Positions 1 through 35,721 of a stretch of DNA of 64,000 bases are shown piece by piece. Origin of the DNA: a virus; the UHGV virus genome UHGV-0213541; one strand, given 5' to 3'. The first letter of the stretch is position 1; every line of letters begins with the position of its first letter. The position numbers and the translations under genes are program-made. Under the pieces are notes generated by a model. The model saw only the letters and a program-made list of their open reading frames with translations. It was not told the DNA's origin and ran no database searches.

Positions 1-12
1 ATTCCTCCTTAT

Positions 13-486
13 ATGCTAAATAGGATGTGTAAATATATGCCACAGTTTTTAATAGACATATGGAATAATACATTTATAGGATTTAGTTTATTCAGCGTCA
101 TATCGTGTATTGAATTTGTCTTAACCATCATTTCTCTCTATAAAATAGGCCGTGTTGATAAAAATATCGCCATTACAAAAGAAATTATGCGTGCGGAGCC
201 AGAAATACAACAAGCAATCAGCGCTATTAAAAAAACTCTAAAAAATGTAAAACTTAACAGTTCAATGCAGGAAGCAACTGTATATGTCAACAACATTTAT
301 CAGACTTTATGTTCAATTTCTGAAAGACTGGATGTTTTAAAAAAGACTTCAGAACACGAAAGTATTGATGAATTTCTCAAAAACTGGACACTGTTCTATA
401 CAAACCCTACTAATAGCGATTACACGGTTGAAAACTGTATCAGAGATTTAACAAAAATTCAGCATGACTTAGAGAGGTTGCTTTAA
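13..486 (+). CDS. Hypothetical protein with N-terminal TM segment and coiled coil; AT-rich cargo antisense to the tape-measure intron
   Basis: 157-aa ORF, hydrophobic stretch FIGFSLFSVISCIEFVLTIISL, AT-rich relative to the structural genes. Confidence 0.6.
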   Translation: MLNRMCKYMPQFLIDIWNNTFIGFSLFSVISCIEFVLTIISLYKIGRVDKNIAITKEIMRAEPEIQQAISAIKKTLKNVKLNSSMQEATVYVNNIYQTLCSISERLDVLKKTSEHESIDEFLKNWTLFYTNPTNSDYTVENCIRDLTKIQHDLERLL

Positions 487-487
487 T

Positions 488-940
488 ATGTTTTTTGAAC
501 AAGCTGCTCATTTTTTAACAAGCATCACCGTATATACGCATCGCAGTAAATGTCGCTGGTATCGCTACCCTGCCTCATACTTATATGACAATCCCGTTGC
601 AAGAATGTTTATAAAAACAAACGAAGCAGAACTTGGGAAGTTAGACATTACGAATTCTTATTTTGTACAGCAAGACTGTGGTTTTGTATACTTCTTTTCA
701 TTTGGCAAAAAAAACAGGATGCTTTGTATACAGCAAGCAATAAATCTTCCACTCATAGAAGTTGCTCAGGAACAAAATTCTGACATAAAAATACTTGAAA
801 CAGAAATAGTTCGATATATAGACGAAGAAGAAGGTCAGCCATGGGGCACTTATAATTTCTTTAGTCATATATGTCCCAATGAACCAGAACCAACAGATGA
901 AGAAATTGAAGAATTAGGTGTTTCTCCGTTTGAAAAGTAA
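488..940 (+). CDS. Hypothetical protein, coupled to the upstream ORF
   Basis: 150-aa ORF starting 1 nt after the previous stop; acidic C-terminus. Confidence 0.6.
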   Translation: MFFEQAAHFLTSITVYTHRSKCRWYRYPASYLYDNPVARMFIKTNEAELGKLDITNSYFVQQDCGFVYFFSFGKKNRMLCIQQAINLPLIEVAQEQNSDIKILETEIVRYIDEEEGQPWGTYNFFSHICPNEPEPTDEEIEELGVSPFEK

Positions 941-1073
941 GTGCCCATGTGGGTCTACAAATACCAAGAAGATATTCGGCATGGCTAAAGCGGCGTCCGT
1001 GGGGCTGTTTAGTATCTTCTCCAAAAAGGTTAAGCCCCAATTCCACTGCAACTCCTGCGGCTATGAATGGTAA
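939..1073 (+). pseudogene. Remnant 3' end of a zinc-ribbon protein gene (KCPCGSTN...GLFSIFSKKVKPQFHCNSCGYEW*)
   Basis: Manual translation; no start codon; first CxxC has lost a residue (CPC); a second degenerate copy lies at 1369-1404. Confidence 0.6.
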
Positions 1074-1091
1074 GATTTGTGAGGTATCTCT

Positions 1092-1340
1092 ATGTCTCAT
1101 CAAGAACAGCACTACGCTGGTATCCATTACCACAATGTCTTAGATGTCGGTTTCTCGTGGAAAGACCACCCGCCGCGTCCATTTAATTCGTACTTCCCCG
1201 GTGCGATAACGCGAACCGAATTCAAGAACTGCCCCGTGTGCGACACAAAAATGCTGACCTATATGCATTATCCAATCGAGAAGCGTATACGTGCTGTGTG
1301 GCAATGCAAGGTGTGTAACAGACTGTTTGTATTCATCTGA
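1092..1340 (+). CDS. Small zinc-ribbon protein
   Basis: GAGGT SD; CPVC...CKVC motifs. Confidence 0.6.
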   Translation: MSHQEQHYAGIHYHNVLDVGFSWKDHPPRPFNSYFPGAITRTEFKNCPVCDTKMLTYMHYPIEKRIRAVWQCKVCNRLFVFI

Positions 1341-1412
1341 GATGTATTTTTTGCAGAAGGTCAAACATCAATTCCACTGTAACTACTGCGGGCATGAATA
1401 GTAATAAAATAG

Positions 1413-1452
1413 AAAAAGCCGCCATGCGTTAAAACATAGCGACCTTTTGTTT
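1413..1452 (-). terminator. Intrinsic terminator between convergent cargo genes, probably bidirectional
   Basis: - strand AAAAGGTCGCTATG-loop-CATGGCGGCTTTTT; T-runs on both strands. Confidence 0.6.
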
Positions 1453-2013
1453 TTAGTTATCATCATTATCTGACGGTATAAGATAATCTTTTACTTCTGA
1501 ATTCGTAGGATAACCAACAATAATACTTTTAATATCAGATATATGAAAAACTATAATATGTGATGGCTGTTTATCTACTACCTCATTTCTATCATCATAT
1601 TCTGTAAAATTACTTATAGCAAAAAGTCCTTCGTCTTTGTCCTGACTTTTCCTGCAGTAAACTCCAGAATAATAATGCGTGTCTGAATTTAACTGTACAA
1701 TTATGTATGTGCCGCTTTCAGTATCTAATAAGTCATCCCAAATTGAACGTGCAGGTGAATAGGCGAATCCGTCTTTTAACGCAGTTTTTACAGATACATT
1801 TTTCAATATGAAATGTATTACGACTGCTATAAAAATAGCCACAGCGACGTTTATAATTGGATTGCTTCCGAAATAAGCAAGTAAATAACTAAAAGCCAAA
1901 GAAAATACTATATAATGTTCAATCAACTTTATTTCTTGTAAGGAACAGAAACACCAAATACCAATAAAGCCCGGTATAAAATAAAGTAAGACCATTGGTA
2001 TTGCTGCAACCAT
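1453..2013 (-). CDS. Membrane protein (DUF6338-like: three TM helices plus soluble beta domain)
   Basis: IPGFIG...SIWDD...YSGVY pattern; SD GAGGTG lies just upstream of an in-frame ACG at 2037. Confidence 0.6.
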   Translation of the reverse strand: MVAAIPMVLLYFIPGFIGIWCFCSLQEIKLIEHYIVFSLAFSYLLAYFGSNPIINVAVAIFIAVVIHFILKNVSVKTALKDGFAYSPARSIWDDLLDTESGTYIIVQLNSDTHYYSGVYCRKSQDKDEGLFAISNFTEYDDRNEVVDKQPSHIIVFHISDIKSIIVGYPTNSEVKDYLIPSDNDDN

Positions 2014-2046
2014 ATCGTTAATTTTAGTTATATCCGTAAAATCACC

Positions 2047-2205
2047 TCATTTATCATTGCCAACATTTCCTTTTTTCATAGTATCTACTGTTTTAACGTC
2101 TTTGTTTTTAGGCGCAACAGTATAATTACGAAAATTTCCAAAATGTTCTGTTGCTGTATCGATGTGAATTTCTTTATTACTATCGTTTTTATTATTCTGA
2201 GCCAT
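2047..2205 (-). CDS. Small hydrophilic protein (52 aa)
   Basis: AAGGAG SD before ATG 2205; extended -10 TGATATAAT upstream; the longer 2466 ORF overlaps the ribozyme core. Confidence 0.55.
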   Translation of the reverse strand: MAQNNKNDSNKEIHIDTATEHFGNFRNYTVAPKNKDVKTVDTMKKGNVGNDK

Positions 2206-2572
2206 ATTGTTAGCAACTCCTTTATTTATAATAAAAGAAATTATATCATATAGATCAAAATAATGTTGCACAAATTTCAATGACAATATATGTGCATTTT
2301 TTATAACCTTCTCGGGGCTTTCCCACGATGTTCTGACTGTCTTTCCTCCCATCCGGCCTAAACCGTAGAATAGGGCTACCCATACAGTCGATGAACCAGA
2401 ATCCCAGAGGTCACACCCTCCATCTGTGCAGTAAGCTGCACGGGTCTCCGGCTGCTGATTAAGCATTGTTTGTGCGACTTAGCACTGCCGCCGCATAAGC
2501 TGACATAAAATATTAAAGCCCGCCGTCATTATGACAGCGGGTAGTTTTTTCGCCGTAAGTGCCGCCCTACGG

Positions 2573-3001
2573 TTATTCTTTTGTAAAATCGAGGTTGCGC
2601 TTGGATGGATACTCCATAGTCAATACCATGTGACCGCTTGCGCTGGTAATGGCAAAATCACATTTACTTAGGATATCCATACCGATAATAACATCATAGA
2701 AAGCGTCCCCTTTATTGTAGGAACCGGCCTCTATGTCCCCACAAGGAATTGTATTGTCTATCATGATATTAACTTCGTAACAATCAACCTCTTGCTTTAC
2801 TCCACCTACTACACTGTAAGGAACTTTTCCAAGTGACGGTAAAGACATTTTTTCTGCAAGTTCTTCAGAGATGCAAGTGTGGGAACAACCAGTGTCTATT
2901 ATACCCATAACAAGCGCACGAGTGAAATTAGCATACACATTAACCAATACACCAATCGTAAGAGAACCTTCTGGAATATCGTTAAATGTGTACACAGCCA
3001 T
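2573..3001 (-). CDS. Retropepsin-like (clan AA) aspartyl protease
   Basis: GIIDTGCSHTCI catalytic motif and C-terminal IIGMDIL motif. Confidence 0.85.
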   Translation of the reverse strand: MAVYTFNDIPEGSLTIGVLVNVYANFTRALVMGIIDTGCSHTCISEELAEKMSLPSLGKVPYSVVGGVKQEVDCYEVNIMIDNTIPCGDIEAGSYNKGDAFYDVIIGMDILSKCDFAITSASGHMVLTMEYPSKRNLDFTKE

Positions 3002-3003
3002 TT

Positions 3004-3279
3004 TTATTTCTCCTTTATTATAACGCCAAAATCTGCTCTTTTAATACCAAAATACTTACATGGATCAATGATATTTGTTTGGCAGTACAAAGCACCAGGA
3101 GCATCACTATTAGGCATATCGCTAAAGGACGAACCAACTGCAACAACTCTGCAATCAACAATCAAAAGTAATTTTCCATTGTACTTCTGATTTAGTTCAT
3201 CTCCATGCTTTTCAGACCAACGAATATTTTTCCGCACAAGTATTTTGTTGTGGATTTTTTTAATCATTTCCTTAATCAT
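3004..3279 (-). CDS. DUF5678-like protein, the usual upstream partner of retropepsin-like proteases
   Basis: W...H.DEL.QKYNGKLLLIVDCRVVAVG pattern; GGAGGTG SD before ATG 3279. Confidence 0.65.
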   Translation of the reverse strand: MIKEMIKKIHNKILVRKNIRWSEKHGDELNQKYNGKLLLIVDCRVVAVGSSFSDMPNSDAPGALYCQTNIIDPCKYFGIKRADFGVIIKEK

Positions 3280-3552
3280 ACCACACCTCCACCTACAAAT
3301 CAATCACCCGCCCTGTTTTTGGCACCGCACAGGGCAAGCGGCCTTTAATATCTTATGTCAACTTACGCAACTACAGCTTTTCTCTCAGCATATCGCATCC
3401 GTGTTGTTGTTTCCGCCTTTCGGCACCGTCACAATGGGTTACTCCACTGTTTTTGTCACACGGCTCTTAGCCTTTCCCAGCAATTTGGGTATTTTGTACA
3501 CCAAGGTTGCATCCTACGCAGCTATTCCCGTTGCGTAAAAGGGCATATTTTT

Positions 3553-6500
3553 ACCGGCCTTGGTATTTGTCATAGATGCAATCGCAGACAACGCTGTTGC
3601 AATCGTCGGCATTGCATCTCCTGCTTTAACTAATCCGTCCGCGAAATCAAGTGCGGCGGTTCCTAAATCGATAAAACCTTTAACAAGTCCACTATCAAGC
3701 ACATCAGACGAGAAGGACTGGAAGGTGGCTTGGAATCTGGACAGCTTGCCCTGCACCGAATCGAGGAACTTGGAGTTTTCGACCTCGGCAGAGTTGCTGT
3801 CAGTTGCAAGCGCATTCATAACCTCGTCAAGCTCTTTGTAGTTCTCGATCAAAGCAGCAACAGCGTTGGCATTTCTCTTGCCACCCATGAGTTCGAGAGC
3901 TGCGCTGTGTTCCTGATCCGACATTTCTGACCATGCTGCGCCCATTTCTTTAATGATCTCGAACGTAGACTTATAATTTCCCTGTTTATCAAGAATATCG
4001 ACTTTCTGGTGAGACAGCGCATATAGTGAAGCTCTCAGTTTAGAAGTCGTTTCGGCCATGCCTTCAGCACTTTCACCGGTTGCTTCCAACTCGGTTTTCG
4101 TTGCACGAAGATACATAGACACTGTTTTTAGTGTTGTACCCACAGTTTCTGGATTTTGAACAACACGGTTCATGGCCGTAGCCAGCGCAATGCTCTCTTC
4201 CAGTGTATTGTTAGCACTCTTTAATGCGGCTCCACTCCGATTGATAGCCTCCCCGACCCCATCCGTAGAAATGGCAAATTTGTTACCAGCGGTATTATAC
4301 TCATTAACAATTCGCATAACATCGTCAGCTTCTACGCCAAATGCCTGCATAGAAGAAATAACCATGGAGCTTGCGTCGTCTATGCTACTGATACCATCGC
4401 CGACATTTTTCAGAAGCAAAGCGGCATCGGAAACTTTTTCAGCATCATCAATATTAAAGCCAAGACGTGCAAAATCTGCTGTACTATTGATAACGTTTGT
4501 CAAGCTAGTGCCAAGTGTTTTTGCACGAGTTCCAGCATCCTCCATAAATTGAGAATATCTGGCGCTCGTCTCATCCGTAACCTTCTTCAGCTCGGTCATG
4601 GCGCTGTCAATGTCCACAACATTCTGATACACCTGACGCAGTCCCTGCTGGAACGCATTGATCACCTGATTTGCCAGCTGGCTCTTGATGTTGACCTCAA
4701 ACAGTTTCTTGAGCTTAACAGCTAAAGTGTCCGTTTCCAGCCCAGCATCCTGAATCTCTTTTTTCAGAGTAGACCATGCCTTGGACATTTCATTGGCGTT
4801 GTCTTTTGTAAACTCTTTAGACTCAATCTTTGGCTTCCACGAATTAAAGAAGTCCGTAAACTTAGCATAAGCTTCCACATTCTTGGAGATAGCACTATTA
4901 TTATTAAAATAACGCTCTGCAGTATACATTGTATTCTGCATGCTCTTTCCCCAAGAGTTCTCGTTCAGCTTTGCCTGTTGTTCATCGTTGAACTCCTTAG
5001 CACTCTGCTTTGCCTGATTGATCCTGCGGCTTACCAATGCCATAAACTCGGCAAGATTCTTAGCTGCTGTACCGGATTCCGACAATTCATTAGCAAACTG
5101 CTGGAACACGCCAGTCAGCTGTGTATAATCTCCACTGTCAATGACATTTTTCAACGCATCACGGATACCAACATACCCAGTAGAACTATCACCGTTCATC
5201 AGGCGCATAAAGGCCGAATCATCAAAGCCTTTATCGCGTGCGTTACCAAGATTGTTTTTATAAGCATTCATCGCCTTATCAATCTCGGTGATTCTGGAGT
5301 TCACATTATTGTATTGGTTTCGTAAAGAATCATCCGCCTTATTCTTGGCACTGTCCATCTTTGATTCCAATTTGTTCATAGCTGTGGTCAACTGTACTAT
5401 AACTGTATAGTATTCTTTTGCTACATTCACATTATTGGGATCAAACATTGCCTGCCCGCGCAGTTCTCTGGCTTTTCCTAACAGATCTTCAATAGACTTT
5501 GCAATATCTTGCATTTCTGCATTTGGCTGTATGTTTTTAGAAAATTCATCATATCGATTCAACAGGTCGTTTGCTGCTTTTCGCTTTTCTGTCGCATTGT
5601 TAATGTTTTCTTGCGCGTTTTCAAACTTCTCTGCTGCATACGATGCGTCAACAAACTCTTTTCTTACATATGTAATAATATCGGCTAGACTGTTCAAACC
5701 ATATCCAGCAGCTGTTGCCTTTGTACGCATATCCGTGAACAACTTGCCAGACAAAAATTCTTCGACATCACGCTCAGAACTAATATTGCTTATAGCAGCA
5801 ATGACTTCCTGAATATTCGTGACAAAATCCTTGCTGCTTTGCAATCCTGCACCAATACCAGTATTGTTGTTAAATCCAGCAAGCAAGCTCTGTAACGAAC
5901 CAACAACTCGATCTTTATCTCCAAGCTGCGTTGCAAAGTCTTTTTGCAAACTATCACTTACAGAATACCCAGCCTTCTGTATTTTTGTTTCCAAAGCATC
6001 GACCGATTTTCCAAGCCTTTGGATTGCATTGTCGTATTCTTCAACAATAGCAACATTGCTGGAGTCAGCAATTACTTGTCCACGTAATTCGCGTGATTTT
6101 TCCAACAAATCAGATACAGAATTTGCAAGGGCTACAATTTCAGATTTTGCGGTGTTAGACGAAGCGTAACTATTGTATTTATCAAGTACATCGTTGGCCT
6201 TCTTTCTGGTTCCTGTTGCGCTTACCATTTTTTTATCAAAGGCAATAGATTCTTTTTGCGTACCAGTAACAGTCGCCACCCTGCGCGTAGCTGCCTTAGT
6301 AGGCTGACTGATCTTCCCAAGCTGCTCTGTGATTGCATCATTGATAACTTTTGCAAAGTCGGTCATGTTGACCTTGTCAGCAATACCCTGCAGCTTCAGC
6401 AAGCCTGCCATACTTGCCTGGATGCTATCAGCAGCAGCATTCAAAGAGTCAAAGACAGTGACAAGCTCGTTGAACGCATTGACAATCGTATCCTTATTAC

Positions 6501-9138
6501 CCTGTACCGTATCAGATTTAGCCGTAATAGCGTCAACTTTTGCTTGCAACGCGCTCGTGTCCTCAAGCACCGCGACAACCTGCTTCAGCACATATTCAAT
6601 CGAGGCTGCAAACTGCTGCGCTGCTTGGCTGACCTCCTTATTGACATCCTGCTGCGTCGGGATCTTGTTTTCTTCAACAGATTTTGTCTTGGAGGTCGTT
6701 TTCTTTTTGCCCTTATCGGTGCTCTTTTTGCCAGTTTCTATCTTAGCCTTGCTGGCATTCTCGACCTGATCAAGAGCCTTATCAAGAGTCTGTGCGCTTC
6801 CTGCTAACTGTGCGCCGGTAGCAGCCACACCCTGCAGCTTGGCTACGATCTGACCCAGTGTTTCATCAGTGGTATCCAGTGCCGCAATAATCTGCTCAGC
6901 AGCAGCCTGCGCATCTTTTACATAGCTCTTTGCTCTGGTGACAGGGTTCGTTGTTTTTGCCTTGTTCTTTTGCGTGTCCTTGTTAGATTTATCGCCCTGA
7001 ACGATGGTTGTATCATTCAGAGTCTTACCAACAGCGCTAATGACTACAGCTTCCTCAGTGAAAAATTTCGTAAGACTGCTAATCGCATCTTTGTAAATAT
7101 CGACGCCTGTTTTCAGCCCATCAAGTGCGTCCTTATACTGTTGCAGTGTGCCGCCGACATCTTTGAGCTTGGCATTATCCGATGTTAGTTTATTTACAAA
7201 GTTGGTAATCGTAGTCAACAGTGCTTTCAGCTTGGAGACTTCCATCTTGCTCATGGCATTGGCAAGTTCCTCTGCGTCGGATTTTGCGCTGTTTGTATTC
7301 GATTGAACACCCTGTTGCGCGGCCTCAAGCTGCTTGACAGACGACATGGCCTCTTTCACCATATCATCAAGGCGCGTTTTCTCATTTTTCGCGGTTGTAA
7401 TAATCTCTTCTTCGACTTTAAGAGTACCACGTTTAGCCAATGTCAAACTGGTTTGCCGCTCGATGATCTGATTCATTAAAGTGAGCAGTGCATTGCCAGC
7501 TTCAATGTCCTGCGTAGTCAACTGACCAAAACTGATCTTTTCAAAGTTCTGCGAAGTCATATCACTGATGTCGGAAATGACCTGATCGATGCCAATAGAT
7601 ACATTTTTGATGTTGTCGATGAACTTAGAATAAATATCAGCATTCATCTTCTTGCTGACATTACCATCAATATCGTTCATCGTCTCATCAAGTTTCTGCA
7701 TGACGTTCAGAACCGATTCAACGCGCTGACGTGTAGAATCGTCCAGCTTACTCGTGTCTATACCGGAGAACATAGACTTGATGCTTTTAGAAAATTCTTC
7801 GATCTTGCTCTTGTACGTACTCATGTACATCAAGAATCCGGTATCATAATCCGTCTCAGTTTTTGCCGGTGTAGAAATAGCTGTCTTTAAACCAGACTGA
7901 ATCTCAGTGGCGATGCTGATGACACTATCCTTCATCTTTTCAGCGTCGTCTTCCACTTCTTTCTGAGTCTGTTTCAGCGTACCCTTCATAATACCGCTGG
8001 CAACTTCGCCAATTTGTTTGGCACTGCCCTCTACAGTTTCGCGGGCAATCTCACCGCCACGTTCGTACATGGTTGTCTGTATATTAGACAACACCTTGTC
8101 AAACTCAGCGCCGATATCCTTGGATCCACTGGTGAGAACAGTCATGATCAGGTTAAAGTCGTCAGAAATATTCTTAGCGTAGATCTTCAGCGCGTCTTCA
8201 TCGTCGGTCTGGTTTACAAGTTCTACATTGGACCCAATGTCGCTATACAACTTTTGGATCGTATCTTTGATTAGCCTGCCGCCAATTTCATACTCTTTAG
8301 AAATGTCAGAAAAGACGTTCTTGTCTCCAAACTTGCTTGCGTACATTTTACGCAGAAAATCTGCAGCCTGATCGCTCTTTGCACCTTTACCGTTGTAATT
8401 TTCAAAAACATCAGCACCAATATCCCTGTCATACTGCTCGTAAAGGTCTTTCATCATATCTACAATGACCTGAGCATCACTGTCTTTGATCTTTTTAATG
8501 GTATTTTTGATTTCAGCACCGGATTTTGTTGCAGCAGAAGTAATTGCATTCGTAATATTAGAAAATGCTTCTTTTACCTGCGACTCGTCAAACGCCTGTG
8601 TGTAATCTCCTGCGCTTAAAGTGTTTAGAATATCTTTCTGAACCTCGGCAACAACGGCCTTATTATTTGCAGCGGCCTTTTTCAGTGCAGACAGATTTTT
8701 CTCTTGATCTCGTAGCGTGTTGTATATAGGGTCTTCACGTTGGGCAGTCTGCATGTTTTTATTCATCATGCTAAAGGTTCTGCTCAACGCCAGAGTCTGT
8801 GTCATGACACTATTGTACTTATCCAGCGATTTAGTGTAGTTTTCCTGTGTGATATTGCCGGTTTTCAGCATGGTCATCACATCTGCCATAGCACCCTGAT
8901 ACAGATCCATCGTGCCAATGACAGTCTTGATAGACCCCATAATGTCAGCAGCATATTTATTCACGCCGCCTGCAATGGCGTTATAAATCCGCTTGGTCTG
9001 CTTATCAATGTTCGTAATATCAAACTGCGGGTCAACCTTGATTTTCAGTTTTTCACTCTGCTCAAGCGCCCGAATTTTTGTACTGACCTCTGATGTGTCA
9101 GGCATTACCTTCAGTTTGATTCTTAAATCCTCCGCCAT
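3553..9138 (-). CDS. Phage tail tape measure protein, exon 1 (1862 codons; the unspliced ORF runs 12 codons into the intron and stops at 3514)
   Basis: Long helical protein; TP901-type core DSAMTELKKVTDET...STADFARLG...VGTTLKTVSMYLR; last gene of the tail block. Confidence 0.9.
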
Positions 9139-16104: not shown

Positions 16105-16188
16105 GGTAAACCTCCCAAATAGAAAAACACCACCCGTTCCCAGGCGGTGCAATTATCTCAAATGTAATTAGTTATATCTAACCCTGCA

Positions 16189-18563: not shown

Positions 18564-20108
18564 TTATCGCCCCTCAGAGTTTGCATTGCTGTCATTTTCC
18601 TGTGTAACAGCCCCCGCGTCGCTCAGGTCTTTTCCCTTGCTTGCATTGGTAGGCCGCCCACCATCATCCGTCGCGGCGTCACTGTCCGCGCTCTGGGTGT
18701 TGGAGCTGGTCAGCGGAACTTCCAGTTCTTTCAAACCCAGGACCTCATTTTCCAGATACAACATGTTCTCCATGTCGCTCGGGCTGTAACCAGCTGTCGC
18801 CATAATAGCACTGCGCACAGGCAGACCATACTGACCGTCCTTTACATACTGGTCATGCATCTCCTGCCGGTTAAAATATGTAACATCCAAAATATTCACT
18901 TTGAACTTATATGCCGTCGAAACACTCTTTAATTTGCGGTTGATCCAGCGCTCAATTTGGCGCATCACCGTAAATACAATCATCTGGTCGTTGATAGTTG
19001 ACCATTTGACAGATGTAGCCGAGTCTTTATCACCGCCGCCAAACAAAATACTGTTGACACCGGCCTGTGTCCACATGGACGCCTCAGCCTTTTCTACATC
19101 ATCGCTGCCACTCACAGCGCCGCTCTTTTCAAAATTCCAGCTGGAAACCTTCATGGGTGACATAAACGCACCAATGTTTTCCGGCAGAACATTACACAGC
19201 ATGTCGTAGAAGTCCCTGCACAGGTCATAATCGATCAGGAATGTGCCATCATCGCCGGTTGGTATCTCCAAAGCCAGAGCCTTGTAATTGTTGACCTCGC
19301 TTGCATTTTTGCTGATAGCGCGGTAGTCCTCAATATCTGCCAATGCGCTGAACAGGCTTACAAACGGCGGAATCGGAATATGCGTCTGCTCGTTAATTTT
19401 GATACAAACGGTGTTGTCGCTGCTCAATTCCTGCCATTTCAAGTTGGAATCTTTTGCGTATGCATTGTACATCGTCGTGAATTCCGGCGGGAAATTCGGC
19501 AGCCGTTCACTGTTCGCATCAAAATAACTAAAGTTAAAAGCAAAATTATACACGCCGTCCTCAACGCTGGAAATCTTGCAGTAGTCCGGGTCCAGCTGCT
19601 GGAATGTATAGCTGTCATTCGTTTCCCACGCATAACCGTAGTACACATCATCACGGAATGCCACCGTCAGCGCTCGCGTAAACTCGTGCCGGATATTCAT
19701 TTTTTCCAGCTGATTGATGACTGCATAGTACCCCTTCTTGAACTTGTTCAGGTTCACGCTCTTGGTTCTGTCAATGCCATACGGCACCACAATATAGCTG
19801 AACGTGGACATACTCGCAAAATACTGGATCAGTCTGCGGTAATAGTTCGATATATTATAAAGGTACTGGCTCATCTGGCGCAGCTGTGTCTCGTAGTTCG
19901 CCGGGTTGCCAAGATAGGTCACGATCTGGGATTTTGTGTACTTACGGTACGTAGGTGCGTAGTCCTTATTGTTTTCAAGGTCTCGGACTTTGATTTGTGA
20001 AATATTTGCATAGCGGAGCTTGTCCATAAACTCCGTCATAGATACATAGTCGCGCTTGCCATCCGGGGTCATCACGGCCACTTTTTTCTGCGTTGAATCA
20101 ATAGTCAA
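18564..20108 (-). CDS. Portal protein
   Basis: 514 aa directly after the terminase; LDPDYCKI and C-terminal PLTSSNTQS...GGRP motifs. Confidence 0.8.
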   Translation of the reverse strand: MTIDSTQKKVAVMTPDGKRDYVSMTEFMDKLRYANISQIKVRDLENNKDYAPTYRKYTKSQIVTYLGNPANYETQLRQMSQYLYNISNYYRRLIQYFASMSTFSYIVVPYGIDRTKSVNLNKFKKGYYAVINQLEKMNIRHEFTRALTVAFRDDVYYGYAWETNDSYTFQQLDPDYCKISSVEDGVYNFAFNFSYFDANSERLPNFPPEFTTMYNAYAKDSNLKWQELSSDNTVCIKINEQTHIPIPPFVSLFSALADIEDYRAISKNASEVNNYKALALEIPTGDDGTFLIDYDLCRDFYDMLCNVLPENIGAFMSPMKVSSWNFEKSGAVSGSDDVEKAEASMWTQAGVNSILFGGGDKDSATSVKWSTINDQMIVFTVMRQIERWINRKLKSVSTAYKFKVNILDVTYFNRQEMHDQYVKDGQYGLPVRSAIMATAGYSPSDMENMLYLENEVLGLKELEVPLTSSNTQSADSDAATDDGGRPTNASKGKDLSDAGAVTQENDSNANSEGR

Positions 20109-23002
20109 ATGTACCCCTCCTTCTGGCAGGTGCCCTAAAGTTTATTTCGATTTTCTTTGTCTTAGCGTAATTCTTTGCCATGCTGCGCTCAACCTGCATT
20201 GCTATGTAGTAGTTGTAACTAACCGAGCTGTAACGGTCCTTGCGTGCGCCGGGCTTTTCATGTACACGGATCAAATTGTTTGTCGCCTCATAATCAAGGT
20301 TGACCAACTCATTGACCATCAGCCCTGTATTGATAAACGGCAGCTGTAAAGCAGTGCGCTCTGTCGGCGTCATCTTGTCATAGCCCTTGAACTGCGCACG
20401 CAGCAGCTCCTCGCAATCGTACTCGGAATCAAGGAACCGGATACGTCCCTGCTGAATACCGCTTCGCAGTGCAATCGTCACATCATTGTTGAACTGTGCG
20501 CTGCCCATAATGGCCCAAATTACCTTGGGCGCGGTCTTATCTGGGCATCTGTCCTGGAAATCAGCGTTATTGCAGCAGTTCAGCGGTGGGAATATCTCTC
20601 CGCTCTCCGGGTCATAACACTCGTGCATCAACAGGTCCATGATCGGGGCACCAAGGCCCTTGGCGTCAATACCGATGTAGTCGCAGTCAAACCATTTAAA
20701 ATAACGGCGCAGTTTTAACACAAGGTCCTGCGTGATGATACCTTCGCAGTTTTCCGTATATACCATGTTACTGGTATATCGTCCACTGCTGCTCGGGGTC
20801 ATATTGTTCAAGAAAATGCTCGTTGCGTCGTTATCGCTATGCTTAGAACTCATCAAAGCAATATCGACCGTCAAAATACGCTTCTCCCCTGGCTTTTTCT
20901 TGGGCGGTTCAATAGATCTGCCTGCCAAAATAGTGCCAGGCGCATAAAATGCCTGCTTCAGATTGCGCACCTTGTTTATATCTTCAAAGCTGAACAGCCC
21001 GCCATCGGTCACGCCGATAAACATGGCTTCCATCTCCATACGGAACTTAATGTCGCTGAACGAAGATTCGGACATCTCATCCTCAACCTGCTCCAGTGAC
21101 AACATACCCTCTTTTACAGGCATCTGATACGGGAACCGGAAGCAGAAATATTTTTTGTCTGTGGCGTACATATTATAGAAATAGTCCTGGCACAACTGCC
21201 ACGACCAGTGAGATTGAAACCATGCTGAACTCAAGTACATTTCAATAGGTCGTTCCAGCAAATGTTTGTACTGCTTCTTCCGTAAATAACCAGGCTGGCG
21301 TGCAACCGTCAGGAAACGACGCAGGACCAGATCAATGACATCCTTGTCGATCATACGGAACTCGTCGCAGACCAGAATCGTAGCACGATGTCCGCGGGAG
21401 GTATCGCTCGCTGTAACAACTTCGATAAAGCTGCCATTACGGAATGTAATCTCAGCCTTACTTTGATTGATGACAACATCTTTTATCTCACTGCGCAATA
21501 GCGGCGACATTGGCATAAGTTCCTTGGTTATCTTTTCAAGAACCTGCGCACCCTGACTTCGAACCTTTGCGCAAACTACTATTTCGCTGTGCGGATAAAG
21601 AATCGCCTTATAAACGATGAATACTGCTGTCAGGAAAGTCTTTCCTAGCACATTGTTATCCTACCGGCTTTTTATCCGGCAGTTCTTATGGTTTCCCATA
21701 AGGTCAGCATACATTTTCATCCATGTAGGATGTCGGACACTCGTGGGCAGATTATATTCTATCTATGATAGGGTCACTGCCTATGCGTTACAATACTGCA
21801 CTTTATTAAAGGTACAGTTATCTCGGTATCAGCATTATCAGCCTTTACCGATTTTGCCCGATGCACTCAAGCAGATTTCTCCGCCTGTGGGCCTAAATTA
21901 GAAATATAGATATTGTATTTACGTAATAATTTTGGTGCATTATCATCTGCATACATAAGTTCACATAATCTTCTCATGTCATTTGTTTTAGTAACAACAA
22001 CACGGTTTTTCATATCGTTTACCTTATATACACTACTGCTGACACCATAAAGCTCTAGTAATTTCTTTTGACAAAATAGCGCAAATTCGTGATTTGGCGT
22101 TGTTATATTGATTTGAACTCTATTTTTCCCTTTTGCTGTATAGTTATAAATACATCCATTTCCATCAAAATATCCTCTATAGAAATCAATGAATAAGTCA
22201 TCGCTAACAATAGGGTGCTCATTTTTGTATGTTTTATTTTGAACAACACCATTCGACACTAGGTCCTCTGCCATTGCTCTGCTGTACATACGAAGCACAG
22301 ATGAATGAGTGTTACAATAACTTTGAATTATAAAAACGTGTTCTTTGTCAATATCTTTTATCTGAAAAACGCCGCCGAATACATTATTTAAGCGCTCCAG
22401 CATATATTTATCGTTACGTTGTAATTCTATACTTATCTCGTAATTTGATCTGTTTTTGTCGCAAATTACCCAGCCATCAGCGTAAAGCAATCCAAGCCAA
22501 TATGCTTTTTCTTTGGTATCAATATCTTTAAAATATCTATTATCAAATACTCTTTTTTTACGCATACCGAGTCTCAATGCCCTAGCCTGTATTTGCTTGG
22601 CTCCATAGCCTAATATCTCGCCAATCTCGCCGCTTGTTTTTGTCATATAGTTATCCAGTATGTATAAATCTTCTTCTTTTGTAAACATTGCTGGACGACC
22701 AGTAGGCTTAACTTTACTCATACAATATCTCTCCTTATTTTTAAAATAATAAAGAGAGGGCGGGTGTCTATCCCGCAAAATCTCTAATTTTGTTGACCAC
22801 GACTTCCAATGAAGCAGAAATTCGTCGCCAGATTCATCATAAAAAGCAAGACGACCTGGAACGGATGCAGCTCTAAGTTTAAATAGTCCTTGCAAAATCG
22901 GTGCGGGTTTGCCCTGTAAAAAGAGCACCACTTCGCCACCGCGTTCATGATTTGCGTAGCCTTGTCATTTGCAACTTCTTCTGCAGTTCTTTTCTGAGCC
23001 AT
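20098..23002 (-). CDS. terL: Terminase large subunit, spliced: exon 1 23002-22796 + exon 2 21648-20098 (585 aa)
   Basis: Joining restores Walker A GSRG|LGKT; Walker B ILVCDEF; nuclease domain LTVDIA...KDRYSS. Confidence 0.9.
21649..22795 (-). ncRNA. Group I intron in the terL Walker A motif (1147 nt)
   Basis: Exon ends in U (GGU), intron ends in G; P3 UCGGGCA 21855-21861 / UGUCCGA 21733-21739; P4 UCGGU/ACCGA; P7 GCAUA/UAUGC in GUAACGCAUAG 21781-21791 and AAAAUGUAUGC 21707-21717. Confidence 0.88.
21867..22721 (-). CDS. Intron-encoded LAGLIDADG homing endonuclease with N-terminal HTH/Myb-like domain (284 aa)
   Basis: AYWLGLLYADG and FYRGYFDGNGCI motifs; own SD AAGGAG before ATG 22721; AT-rich. 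Confidence 0.88.
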   Translation of the reverse strand: MSKVKPTGRPAMFTKEEDLYILDNYMTKTSGEIGEILGYGAKQIQARALRLGMRKKRVFDNRYFKDIDTKEKAYWLGLLYADGWVICDKNRSNYEISIELQRNDKYMLERLNNVFGGVFQIKDIDKEHVFIIQSYCNTHSSVLRMYSRAMAEDLVSNGVVQNKTYKNEHPIVSDDLFIDFYRGYFDGNGCIYNYTAKGKNRVQINITTPNHEFALFCQKKLLELYGVSSSVYKVNDMKNRVVVTKTNDMRRLCELMYADDNAPKLLRKYNIYISNLGPQAEKSA

Positions 23003-25735: not shown

Positions 25736-25860
25736 ACAAACATCGCTCCTTATAAAACCTTTTAAAATCGGACAAAACAAAAGCCCGCCCAAAGCCGAAG
25801 CCCTGGACGGGATAAAGTCATCAGTCCTTAATCGTTGTAAACCGCCTTATTTTAAAAGCG

Positions 25861-26682
25861 TTACATCGTAGAATGCCGCTGTCTGTATTTGCGTACTCTT
25901 TCTCTTGTCTGTTCTCTTTTTATGATCTTGGCACAATCATCACAATATTTTGTCATGTTCCCTCTTGCCGTAAACGCACAGCCGCAGCTCACGCAGAACC
26001 GTATGTTTTTCAACCCCACCGTTTGATACAAAGCATACAGGTTCAGCCGATTTGTGTCAGGCGTAACAACCATCTCGTATACAACTTCATTATTCTTCAA
26101 ATCATAATTCTCGTAGGTATAATAACAGCCAACCTTCTTTGCGGTATGTTCGCTGTCCGTCCGCAGCAGGATGCCGTACTCATCGCTCACCGTCTCCATC
26201 CCTATCGGCGCGTGATAAGTCTCGTACCACTTTCCCTTTCTGATGGTAACATCATGCAGGTGCGATTCAAAACAGCCGCAAAACCGCTTGATCTTAAACT
26301 CTGTCGTCAAATCTATCGTGTCCATATGTAAAATCCTACACATCATCACAACGCCAAACAGGCAAAGTTGCTCTTTCTGCTTCAGATTGTGTGTCTCAAT
26401 TTGTGTCATGATCCATTCAAGGTCTTGTTTATATACTTTTATACTGTCAATCTGTAATAACTCACATGTCTTCGTTCCGCAGGTCTCAAAATGTCTTACA
26501 AGGTCATATCTGTCGTAGTTCAAATTCAAACTGTTGTCAAACATCGTAAGGTACATATCAGCACATTTGTCAGGCGTCATTCCGCTGCGTCCAATCACGC
26601 GCTTCAACGCACGGTTTCCCAAATCGTTCTTCTTGTAATGATCAAGCAGCATCTTCTCGTTGCAGTAAAAATCATAAAACAT
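25861..26682 (-). CDS. Hypothetical protein with C-terminal Zn finger and basic helix, coupled to the RNA polymerase gene
   Basis: CVSCG...YCDDC...REQTRERVRKYR; SD GGAGGTG. Confidence 0.7.
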   Translation of the reverse strand: MFYDFYCNEKMLLDHYKKNDLGNRALKRVIGRSGMTPDKCADMYLTMFDNSLNLNYDRYDLVRHFETCGTKTCELLQIDSIKVYKQDLEWIMTQIETHNLKQKEQLCLFGVVMMCRILHMDTIDLTTEFKIKRFCGCFESHLHDVTIRKGKWYETYHAPIGMETVSDEYGILLRTDSEHTAKKVGCYYTYENYDLKNNEVVYEMVVTPDTNRLNLYALYQTVGLKNIRFCVSCGCAFTARGNMTKYCDDCAKIIKREQTRERVRKYRQRHSTM

Positions 26683-29600
26683 CGCAGTCACCTCCCGGTA
26701 CAAGCTCTGCATCGATATACTCTACCGGGATGTCGCTTTCCACAGGGGCCAGCGTATAACGCTTTCCAAGGTACTCGTACTCGCCGTCATCGCACTCCTG
26801 CGGTAGGCAGATGTTTACCTGTTTGATGTTCTCTACTACACCCTTACCGGCCATCTGCCACATGAACTTTTTGTTGCGGCTCTTATACTTGTCATAGCAC
26901 AATACCACACAAATGTTTGCAAGCTCACGCACATCCGGCACGATCTGCTGGCACCGGCTGCGGTAAATGTTGTAGTAATACTGCCAGTTTACCTCAAAAT
27001 TCGTAGCGATCTCTTTCGTAATGTTCTGTTCTCTTAAAATATCTTTGTACGTTTCGTAGTGTCTGCACTGGTGATTCAGCTCCGCCAAATCCCTGCACAG
27101 CTTGTAAAATTCGCAAAATATCAACTCAATAGCGTCAAAGTGTTCCTGGGCATACCCAATCTCTTCATCAAACATGATCCTCCAGTCGAACTTTTTCATG
27201 CGCCGTTTTCGGATCGTGTTTTCCCAGCGCTCAAGCTCAAAGCACAGCATGTTCATGTTGGAGTGGGCACAACTCAGCTTTTTCATCCGCTTGTAGTACG
27301 GGCTTGCGTACTTCATAAAATACGGCAGCGGACGACCGTATTTCGCAATGTTGCGGGGCACTGGGTAAAGCACTCCCGTCTTGGCAAAATCGCATTTCTG
27401 CTTTTGGACTATATCATCATCTCACATCTGTTGGACTATGAGAGGCTGGCACTTCCACGCCGGATTTTCACCAGAACGTGTACTCCCTTGCGGGATAGTC
27501 TCTTAACCTTCCCCTGTTATGGGGCTTGGCACAGGATTATTCATTTGACCTTCCCTGTCAGCCTGTTATCTTACCACCATTTCCTGCGGCTCCTAAGCGT
27601 ATAACAGACACCCTGCTCTTGCAGGTTCACCAGCTTTTACACTGAACGTCACCGTACAGCGCCACCGATTTTGATGGCTTTCGTTACTACTCTATGTTAC
27701 CATAGGGACTAGACTATCTCTTCCGCATTTCTGCGGCCGTGCGCTTCGACCGGGCTACCAACTCCGGCCTACATAGCTACATTCATCACTATTAGTCGTT
27801 ACGCCTTCCTCTTGCGAGGCTTGGCACGGTATTGTCTCCTACCCAAGAGAGTTTCACCGTTAGCCGCCATAAAGACGACACCGCTGGTAAGGCGTTCACA
27901 CAGTTTTACAACGGCAAGGCTGTTTACCGTTGACCACAGACAGCAGATCAACATATCCCTCATATCGCTTTTTCTGCTCCTGTGTTTTTGGCGCTTTATT
28001 GTGATATGCACTCGCATAGTTGCTTATCTCTCCAATGGAGCTGCGCAAGCTGCGAATAATACAGTTTGTTCTGTTCTGGATGCTGTATTCTTCCTTCAAT
28101 GCAGTGACCTTATCCTCAACATCAATGACCACAGAAGCGTTGCGATCAACACCGCTCATAATTATAGGGTCATTAACAATCAACGTGAGATCACCGTCAT
28201 ACGTACCTACGATATATTTTGCGTAGGTGCTGACTATATCTTCTGCCGTTTTCGGCAGCGGTGCGCTCCCAGTCGCGTATCAATAGCGGCCGTACTCCGG
28301 TACACTCATCCCGGATAGTCGATGCACTCCTTGCGAAGCACAGGATTCTCCCCTGCGGGCATTCCCTGTTAGCAGCCGTTAGGCCACACCCCTGATGAAG
28401 GGTTCACACCGTTCCAAATGCTGTGTTACCACAGCCCCGAACCATGACTGATCCGCGCCATTTAATCGCTGCGGCGTGATACTTTTGCAGTTTACAATCG
28501 CCGTGTTGACCAAATGTCCACAATACTTCTCCAGAAGTTCGTTCGTTGTTCCTTTTAAAATAACATGTTCACTCTTGCAAATATGTGGGTTCCGCTCTAA
28601 CAATCGCTCACCAAGCATGGTTCCTGTTCTGTCAAAGCAAAAGAATTCATCCGCCTCCAGCGATCCCTTTAAGGGCAACCCGCCGATGTGTTCCATCAGC
28701 ATAATCAAATCAGGAGTTAATGTTTTGAAAGTTGATTTAGTCCAGAGCTTTCCACACTTCATATCATCGCGGTACTTCCCAAGCAAGTTCACAATGTAAT
28801 TCCGCACGCCGTCCTCGTTCATCATCTCCGGGTTTTTGAGAATGGCTGCGCAGTAGTCGTTCAACGCCTTATGCTTATCAGCGTACATGCCAAGAAAGCA
28901 GTATGTATAAATCGGGTCGCCGTCTGTGATCTTTTCAAACCAGTTGATGCTGTCATCTGCGATAGAGCGGAACTTGTCATACGGCAAGTCCAAATCCTGC
29001 AAAATCTGGTAGTTTGCCCGCGTCATAAGCGGCTCCGTATCGGCATCGAAGTTCCACTTGGCAATACCAAAACAATGGTTGTACTTCTTGAACTGATACC
29101 AATACTCCTCCCAGTCCGCAATCGTGCCGGTTTTGTTGAAGTAGGAGTATCCCTTGTACTGTCCCTCCGTCAAAATCATCAGCGGTTCTGCGCCCGGGCT
29201 TACATCGTGCTGCACACCCCAGATATCTGTAATGAACCGCACGCCGCGCTCTGCAAAAAAAGTCTCATAGTCAACACTATGAACCACGCCCTTCATCAGA
29301 GGGAGCCTGATCACCGCGCTCGTAATCGGCGTATCACTGCCAATCCTACGGCGAACTTCCTCCATGATCTTCGGATGTGCAATGCCGCAGCCGTCAAATG
29401 CGTTGATGGTAATGTCGCGGACGCCTTCCGTGATGTCCTTCTGTGTCCAATCACGCTCTGCACCGGTGTTCTTATCCTTGAACTTGATCTTTCTATCATA
29501 CACATACTTGATGTGCTGGTCCTTAATGGTCAAAAAACAGTCCGGAACAACGACAATATTCGGCACCCAGCCCTCAATGCAGTGGCAACTGGAGAAGCAC

Positions 29601-30022
29601 AACCCCCGATAACCAGAATACTTCGATATAACACACTTTTCAAAAGTTATTCCCATCGTGATACGCTTATCCAGCTCCTTGGCGATTCGTCTGTCAACAA
29701 AACTCAGGATGCCCTGCCGTACCATGCTGGCACTGCGCTCGCTCACCACAAATTCCTGCTTGCCAACCTTGAACCCGTGGTGGATCAGCCGCGTCATCTC
29801 TTTCTTTTTGTTCTGCCCGCCCACGCAGTTCACAAACACCACAAAGCGGTTGAATTTATCGGTCTCATATGTAATCAGCCGTACCTGCCGGAAAAGCATG
29901 TTGTCTCCCTGTTTTACCTGAAAGCGCTTTTCTTCATCCGGGTCAAGCTGGATGTTAAAGTTGTTGCTTATAATAAAGGAAAGCGGGAACTTCCTTACGA
30001 TATACAGCGGCGGTGAAAACAT
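26672..30022 (-). CDS. yonO: YonO-like single-subunit RNA polymerase, spliced from 4 exons: 30022-28451, 28201-27926, 27681-27674, 27392-26672 (858 aa)
   Basis: RSASMVRQG, FDGCG, IRLP..KG, RNPH; splicing restores GAD|YDGD and NG|KAI|DFAKTG; exon lengths 1572+276+8+721=2577 nt, in frame. Confidence 0.9.
27393..27673 (-). ncRNA. Group I intron 3 of the RNA polymerase gene (281 nt, ORF-less)
   Basis: P1 GCCAU/GUGGC; perfect P10 AAAAUCG/CGAUUUU; P3 GCUGGU/GCCAGC; AAGAGACUAU (27495-27504) and GAUGAUAUAGUC (27407-27418). Confidence 0.9.
27682..27925 (-). ncRNA. Group I intron 2 of the RNA polymerase gene (244 nt, ORF-less)
   Basis: P1 CAACGGU/GCCGUUG; P3 CUGUGUG/CGCACGG; GUAACGACUA (27793-27802) and AAGAGAUAGUC (27712-27722); ends in G. 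Confidence 0.9.
28202..28450 (-). ncRNA. Group I intron 1 of the RNA polymerase gene (249 nt, ORF-less)
   Basis: Exon ends GAU, intron ends G; P1 CGGAU/GUUCG; P10 GUCAUG/UAUGAC; P3 CGGUGUG/CGCACCG; CAUCGACUAU and AAGAUAUAGUC (28232-28242). Confidence 0.92.
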
Positions 30023-34911: not shown

Positions 34912-35721
34912 TTATTCGCCAACAAAAATGTACTGATTAACATAATCCCGATTTTCACCTTTCAAGATTGGCATTTCAGTATCAAGTACCCACTGCCCAT
35001 CCTTATTGATACAGGCTGTACCACGTTTGCATGTGGTAGGATAATTATTCCAGTTGACGTCAAATTGCCACATAAGCATGTCCTGAATGTCGTTGCATTT
35101 CTTCCCCTCCAGCTGTTTGTATGAGAAATATGCTTGCCCCACCATCTGGATGGAATTGCGTGTCGCATCGAGCTGACGCCAATAGATAAGGTTACAAACT
35201 TCTTCCTTTGGGATATTGAAGCAGCGGGCGTCGAACATAGCGCCTTTATTGGCGGCAGTCGTCATCTTTGCAACATACTCGTTATGAGCAATTTGTACAT
35301 CTATAGATTGTGGCGTAAGACTACTTTTCCATGCAGAATCTTCGTTCCAGATAGACATTCTGAAGAATTTATTGAACGCCATCGTTGCCATACTGGCGGA
35401 CACACTACATAGCTTCTGAACTTCGTAATCGAACCAAGCATCCGTGGTAAGTGTCTGGTAGTCAATCAGGATCAGTGTGATTTCATCGGACTGTGTATAA
35501 CCAAACACGCAGCCTTGGATATTCTTGCACAGGTACATCATGGTTTCCTGCATAGATTTCATCAGGATCATGTCAAAAGGCTTCTGAAAGCCACGAGTAA
35601 AGGTGTGGAAGCTTTTGCCGTCAATTCTCAGTGCAACCGGCGTTCGGCGCATTAACTTTGTTTTAGGAACTGCCTCGTAATACTCTTTCATACGGGTGCC
35701 CATGGAATCATTAAAGCTCAT
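34912..35721 (-). CDS. thg1: tRNA(His) guanylyltransferase Thg1-like 3'-5' polymerase
   Basis: RIDGKSFHTFT, YTQSDEITL, FDARCF and WRQLDATRNSI motifs. Confidence 0.92.
   Translation of the reverse strand: MSFNDSMGTRMKEYYEAVPKTKLMRRTPVALRIDGKSFHTFTRGFQKPFDMILMKSMQETMMYLCKNIQGCVFGYTQSDEITLILIDYQTLTTDAWFDYEVQKLCSVSASMATMAFNKFFRMSIWNEDSAWKSSLTPQSIDVQIAHNEYVAKMTTAANKGAMFDARCFNIPKEEVCNLIYWRQLDATRNSIQMVGQAYFSYKQLEGKKCNDIQDMLMWQFDVNWNNYPTTCKRGTACINKDGQWVLDTEMPILKGENRDYVNQYIFVGE

Follow-up and report, generated by a model that had tools for sequence, protein, structure and literature searches.

A probable group I intron carrying exchangeable accessory genes splits a phage tape-measure gene

Introduction

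The tape-measure gene of the virus genome UHGV-0213541 raises a simple question: does the gene end where its open reading frame (ORF) stops, or is it split by an intron that holds several other genes? The stretch analysed here, called the window throughout, comprises 64,000 nucleotides (nt). Its tape-measure ORF occupies 9138-3514 on the minus strand and has 1874 codons, with a Pfam match to PF10145 at amino acids (aa) 1539-1752 and matches to PHROG tape measure families. The stop lies 12 codons past AAG GCC GGT, as had been noted in a sequence-only reading of this DNA, which proposed a group I intron in the tape-measure gene. That proposal is supported by relatives of the genome, in which the terminal G, an in-frame second exon and covarying helices were found. 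We consider that a group I intron probably splits the gene and is cis-spliced from one long late transcript, joining the exons in frame.

Results

A group I core lies at 2302-3552 on the minus strand, directly after exon 1, in the canonical order P2, P3, P4, enlarged P5, P6, P7, P8, P9. The order P3-P4-P6-P7-P8 together with the P, Q, R and S motifs, by which a group I intron is recognised, is present in the window, and the elements of the complete core lie where the earlier reading had placed them. The same is true of the two genes in P5. P and Q, put at about 1 kilobase (kb) apart, are separated by 1026 nt. The core strands are P3 3491-3486 / 2382-2377, P 3486-3473, Q 2460-2451, P7 2389-2385 / 2339-2335, P8 from 2376 and P9 2328-2312. 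From exon 1 to the end of the core the features are:

3553-9138, minus strand: tape measure exon 1, 1862 codons ending Lys-Ala-Gly; predicted 5' splice site after U3553, phase 0
3558-3566, minus strand: second exon-binding helix, exon strand, lying upstream of P1 and pairing with 3506-3498
3541-3552, minus strand: internal guide, with the P10 guide at 3549-3545 and a short P1 (G3544 opposite U3553); cognate P10 pairing
3514-3538, minus strand: P2 hairpin, including the stop codon of the unspliced frame; compensatory changes
3498-3506, minus strand: intron strand of the second exon-binding helix, pairing with 3558-3566
3473-3491, minus strand: P3 5' strand and P element (P4 5' strand); motif order and fold
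3338-3368, minus strand: 5' arm of the long helix looping out the P5 cargo; inverted repeat and fold
2493-2523, minus strand: 3' arm of the same helix around the P5 cargo; shares bases with a weak terminator-like hairpin at 2541-2519
2333-2460, minus strand: Q, P6 (loop GUGUGA at 2416-2411), P7, P3 3' strand, P8 and S; motifs and the Rfam alignment of the compact relative L024
2302-2328, minus strand: P9 hairpin and the strand 2309-2302, predicted partner of a distant 3' module; motifs and pairing

A scan for the S motif plus one genome match gave 81 related loci, 66 of them with a full core, and the same core was present in 18/18 of the closest relatives (all loci found with exon 1). The U-G pair at the 5' splice site in P1 is shared by the window and all 66 loci, P1 having only 3 base pairs (bp), and the phase 0 of the predicted 5' splice site is the same in the 63 of the 66 in which it could be tested. 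A 3' module of 50 nt was found in 60 of the 66 core loci (59 standard modules and one variant), 1.9-7.9 kb from the 5' splice site with a median of 3.8 kb; the sequences of the remaining six end 0.46-2.7 kb after the core. The module opens with a strand able to pair with the 7-8 nt that follow P9, then has a hairpin and then the terminal G, after which a long start-less tape-measure frame follows in phase 0 at all 55 testable loci; four loci end too soon, and at one in-phase locus it is the second of two neighbouring Gs that has to be used. On tape measures without an interruption the two exons align one after the other, for example to aa 160-636 and 688-893 of L177, and as judged from sequence exon 2 encodes the C-terminal portion of the tape measure. 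The terminal G followed by an in-frame C-terminal exon, which the sequence-only reading had asked to be looked for, is thus found in relatives, and nothing that it had named as speaking against an intron, such as the lack of this exon, turned up among the points open to testing.

In three relatives sharing the left end of the window the terminal G lies 768-827 nt beyond base 1, so that the intron of the window is predicted to be about 4.3 kb long; its 3' module, and after it an in-phase exon 2 beginning ATATT, are expected about 0.8 kb past the left end. The exact 5' junction of the window was found in one metagenome contig (L184), which is 98.8% identical over 764 nt, has no P5 cargo and an intron of 2130 nt, and continues in phase into an exon 2 that is open for at least 1960 codons. 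The junction was not found in viral contigs, the window DNA had no match in an annotated phage collection, and the element was not found in the searched genomes among 400 of the family of the genome G002, G002 itself excepted. Two different copies of the element (L061 and L065) were seen on one 233-kb contig, which is perhaps a joined assembly.

MAFFT alignments were wrong in P1 when clades were compared and in the 3' half when families were compared, so the helices were read by motif anchors. P2, P3, P7 and P9 change together with their partners across 91 loci; the end pair of P7 is G-C in 69 of these and A-U in 22. For the P10 guide the cognate exon 2 is the best partner in 13 of 15 junction types, the other two being ties, and a prospective test was passed, as exon 2 of L184 begins with the predicted 5-nt complement, in phase. 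The second exon-binding helix joins the exon, at positions of about -6 to -14, to the part of the intron immediately preceding P3, its two strands changing in concert in four sequence families. The 3' hairpin shows 90% pairing and 36 cells with a double change, which 0/500 shuffles reach, although relatedness can inflate this figure. The P6 loop reads GUGUGA in 67/67 loci and the loop of the 3' hairpin CACAC in 59/59; this candidate loop-loop contact is a lead only, because the 3' loop doubles as an antisense extended -10, no compensatory change was seen, and in the stem G-U cells outnumber A-C cells only 25 to 14. Anatomy, phase and covariation are established, as is the turnover of the cargo described below.

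These observations also bear on whether the ribozyme is dead, the tape measure being made as two proteins and the gap between them being an ordinary moron hotspot. A weak Rfam score, one mismatch in the P9 of the window and the early in-frame Met of some exon-2 frames (L184, for example) would fit such a state. However, no Shine-Dalgarno-led start was found near exon 2 in any of the 59 loci, and the retention of phase, together with P10 and the second exon helix tracking changes in the exons, is hard to explain without splicing. We regard a dead ribozyme as very improbable.

Interruptions near this site recur. Among 80 more distant loci, 55 have one; this intron accounts for 12, a homologous family (family 2) for 23, a family with a different group I-like core (family 3) for 18, and others for two. 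The 3' junction was found in 20 of the 23 family-2 and 16 of the 18 family-3 loci, and every listed junction type with an assignable long frame is in phase (11 in family 2 and eight in family 3). In family 2 another complementary pair closes the P9 cargo, the P10 guide has 11 nt, and the candidate P6 loop contact is missing. At almost the same position in the tape-measure gene, the L151 type (L151-L182) and L126 have different group I-like cores, and their multi-kb cargo is laid out in the same way.

Several points weigh against a spliced intron. An Rfam search of the window and of the compact L184 gave no group I match, and Intron_gpI (RF00028) matched L024 weakly (E 0.0033, 21 bits against a gathering score of 50), so that the group I assignment rests on motif order and covariation; the alignment of L024 did place all four motifs P, Q, R and S. 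Exon 2 lies beyond the left end of the window and was read from relatives only. Covariation of P3, P4 and P7 had been proposed as a test of the intron, and P3 and P7 stood it; P4 is invariant across the 91 loci and hence uninformative. As the loci are related, the 66 cases overstate independence, representing 15 junction types and about five guide families, and the P10 of L184 has only 5 bp with no further pairing. An extended -10 promoter motif lies on the opposite strand inside the 3' module of all 50 alleles listed, and this antisense promoter accounts for part of the conservation of the module. Furthermore, the transcript would have to pass sense terminator-like hairpins, which a strict scan found in 41 of 51 cargo arrays compared to 1/50 exon-2 and 8/51 exon-1 stretches, a contrast inflated by the controls being coding DNA; a permissive scan gave 51/51 arrays compared to 31/50 controls. 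In 24 of 67 loci such a hairpin is found no more than 60 nt from the P9 strand, and of the 87 proteins of the window none was recognisable as an antiterminator.

Natural trans-splicing, as known for group I introns of plant mitochondria, would solve the termination problem posed by terminators within the intron. The RNA with exon 1 and the ribozyme would end after P9, and exon 2 with the 3' module would be transcribed separately, the two RNAs assembling via the P9-closing helix, P10 and possibly the loop-loop contact; the DNA between them would then be free as an open-ended hotspot with its own promoters and terminators. The hairpins right after P9 and across the cargo agree with this, and so do the final called cargo gene, antisense in 48 of 50 arrays, and the strong promoter motif in the 3' module. 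On the other hand, no conserved sense promoter was found within 160 nt of the 3' module (weak matches occur in 6/32, at differing places, and a phage-specific promoter is possible), and the small sense genes after the first terminator leave no room for one. Strong terminator-like hairpins also stand directly before the ribosome-binding sites of late genes on the minus strand at 25811, 18377, 16150, 15080 and 10956, implying read-through or phage-specific promoters, and those preceding structural genes at 16150, 15080 and 10956 point to general read-through in the operon. On balance trans-splicing seems unlikely.

The antisense promoter allows a further interpretation, in which splicing is real but its main role is regulatory: promoter and terminators would silence the tail mRNA in the lysogen, the cargo being incidental. 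The motif in every allele listed and the integrase encoded in the window are in line with this, and the zinc-ribbon gene F0 is the final, antisense gene in 46 of 50 arrays. Family 2, however, is without this 3' hairpin, the overlap there being with the antisense ribosome-binding site instead, and 25 of the 80 more distant relatives have an uninterrupted tape-measure gene. A mainly regulatory role, which is compatible with a cis-spliced intron, is in our opinion improbable.

The genes carried in the window occupy the P5 and P9 loops. The P5 pair is enclosed by a 31-nt inverted repeat (3368-3338 / 2523-2493, 87% complementary). At least five genes on both strands had been noted after P9, and five ORFs and one gene remnant were found there. 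The cargo comprises:

3004-3282, minus strand: P5 cargo gene 1, 92 aa, family F2; DUF5678-like as a lead only (score 0.85), no Pfam match
2573-3001, minus strand: P5 cargo gene 2, 142 aa, retropepsin-like aspartyl protease; PF13975 E 7e-07, weak PADLOC PDC-M08B E 8e-06
2047-2205, minus strand: P9 cargo ORF, 52 aa, family F27
1453-2013, minus strand: P9 cargo membrane protein, 186 aa, family F6; weak DUF6338, E 0.0022, below cut-off
1413-1448, minus strand: intrinsic-terminator-like hairpin facing the tape-measure transcript; terminator scan
1357-1404, plus strand: repeat copy 2, a degenerate version of the zinc-ribbon gene's 3' end; direct repeat
1092-1340, plus strand: P9 cargo zinc-ribbon protein, antisense, 82 aa, family F5, between the two repeats
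918-1073, plus strand: remnant of the C-terminus of zinc-ribbon gene F0, including repeat copy 1 at 1026-1073
488-940, plus strand: P9 cargo ORF, antisense, 150 aa, family F14; no family match
13-486, plus strand: P9 cargo ORF, antisense, 157 aa, family F15; no family above cut-off

As had been said from the sequence, no cargo gene resembles a homing endonuclease: Pfam and PHROGs gave no endonuclease family among the window cargo, such as a homing intron would have, nor was one seen among the representatives of 41 cargo families from relatives. The lack of a homing endonuclease makes it likely that the intron is inherited with the gene. The retropepsin-like protease was considered as an obligatory processing enzyme of the tape measure and rejected, as many arrays have no protease gene.

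The P9 loop is a hotspot with 50 different arrays among 59 loci, over which a simple gene caller found 375 cargo proteins in the 41 families, and the P5 cargo is carried by some alleles, partly deleted in others and missing from most. In the window the two copies of the F0 3' end (1026-1073 and 1357-1404) flank one cassette that is missing from the related genome G001, which suggests gain or loss of the cassette by recombination. Recognised cargo in relatives includes a Panacea antitoxin, DUF2513, a helix-turn-helix protein, an IS3-like element and DUF3800. The earlier description of the cargo as exchangeable accessory genes (moron or defence-like) holds for the exchange, and the safe harbour proposed there is a possible evolutionary reading; for defence there are weak hints, as PADLOC, run on 22 cargo proteins, matched three weakly, one of them the window protease, whose PDC-M08B is the one such family in the window. 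As a separate observation, the 7.9-kb intron allele of L036 has an IS3-like element and the Panacea antitoxin with a neighbouring gene inside.

Other interruptions were seen nearby. Exon 1 carries further insertions in the relatives L001 (10664-11977), L002, L003, L012, L015-L018 and L184, and the insertion at the window site 4137 holds an HNH-like ORF in L001. The gene just upstream of portal (20101-23002, minus strand), probably the terminase, is split around a LAGLIDADG ORF at 21870-22721, with phrog_15503 on both parts; this insertion is likely an ordinary homing intron. A phrog_8308 gene (26675-30022, minus strand) is in two pieces, and two S-like motifs of group I type lie in the gap at 27361-27802, where a short exon may be flanked by two introns. 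A tRNA-His guanylyltransferase (Thg1) gene lies at 34915-35721 (minus strand). Lachnospiraceae, indicated as host by the metagenome-assembled genome contig L099, are a weak assignment, the contig being phage-sized.

Discussion

If the intron is cis-spliced, the ribozyme would grip exon 1 by the 3-bp P1 and a second helix of 6-9 bp further upstream, and the 3' splice site, about 4.3 kb away, would be captured by the P9-closing helix of 7-8 bp, the conserved 3' hairpin, the terminal G and P10. The accessory genes would sit in two loops, P5 and P9, and leave with the spliced intron, and late transcription would read through the terminator-like hairpins, as it apparently does elsewhere in the operon. 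Conserved intron ends and duplicated gene tails are likely to be recombination anchors for cassette exchange. Splicing, read-through, the mechanism of exchange and a benefit from the cargo are what we infer from these data.

Should splicing be true, what was a selfish intron would have become a permanent receptacle for accessory genes within an essential virion gene in a widespread group of gut phages, and tape measures annotated as two proteins would be single proteins of about 3,900-4,000 aa. Every intron would point to a hotspot in which defence and exclusion genes could be sought, and the RNA would be a natural solution to the capture of a 3' splice site across 2-8 kb of variable sequence.

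Similar elements are known in part. IStrons are bacterial group I introns with kilobases of cargo outside the endonuclease families between the core and the 3' splice site, but they are transposons with fixed tnpA/tnpB cargo at many sites, whereas the present element is confined to a single site and encodes no transposase itself. Neither IS200/605 tnpA/tnpB cargo nor dispersed insertion sites were found for it; one IS3-like insertion was seen, in L036. In the T4 sunY intron the 3' splice junction is remote, and a P12 loop-loop contact and long-range pairing bring the 3' hairpin to the core. Common to both is a remote 3' terminal hairpin that long-range pairing carries to the core; in contrast to sunY, the candidate contact here uses the P6 loop, without compensatory change, and does not occur in family 2.

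Closest in location are the group I introns TMP-IVS1/2/3 in the tape-measure genes of Bacillus cereus-group prophages, which according to the accessible part of that paper are likewise in frame, with an early stop and mostly without a homing endonuclease, but for which that part describes no multi-gene cargo and no remote 3' module (PMC2504315). The introns of Bastillevirinae and T4 td share with this element ORFs in peripheral loops of a phage intron (PMC11878797, PMC3073962, as far as the available text goes). The former have a mean length of 802 +/- 342 nt with endonuclease ORFs, while the element here spans 1.9-7.9 kb with variable genes on both strands in two loops and no endonuclease match (PMC11878797, same portion). 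The giant group I intron ND5-717 of coral mitochondria, with 18-19 kb in P8, also surrounds many functional non-endonuclease genes; in the part of the source consulted it is an organellar intron with core genes as cargo and back-splicing, in contrast to a phage intron with rapidly exchanged accessory genes in P5 and P9 (PMC6545197). No such element is described in the accessible sections of an intron-host review (PMC3073962), and the words 'intron' and 'tape measure' do not occur in those of a phage hotspot survey (10.1101/2024.10.15.618418). A literature search of main texts, mostly outside subscription journals, found no multi-gene cargo introns in phage tape-measure genes, which supplements may still mention, and the second exon-binding helix was not found described in the literature searched. 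Introns in tape-measure genes and giant introns with many genes have each been described, and their combination in phages was not found in that literature; to these known systems the present analysis adds cargo in two loops, a second exon-binding helix, a prospective P10 test that was passed and the terminator problem.

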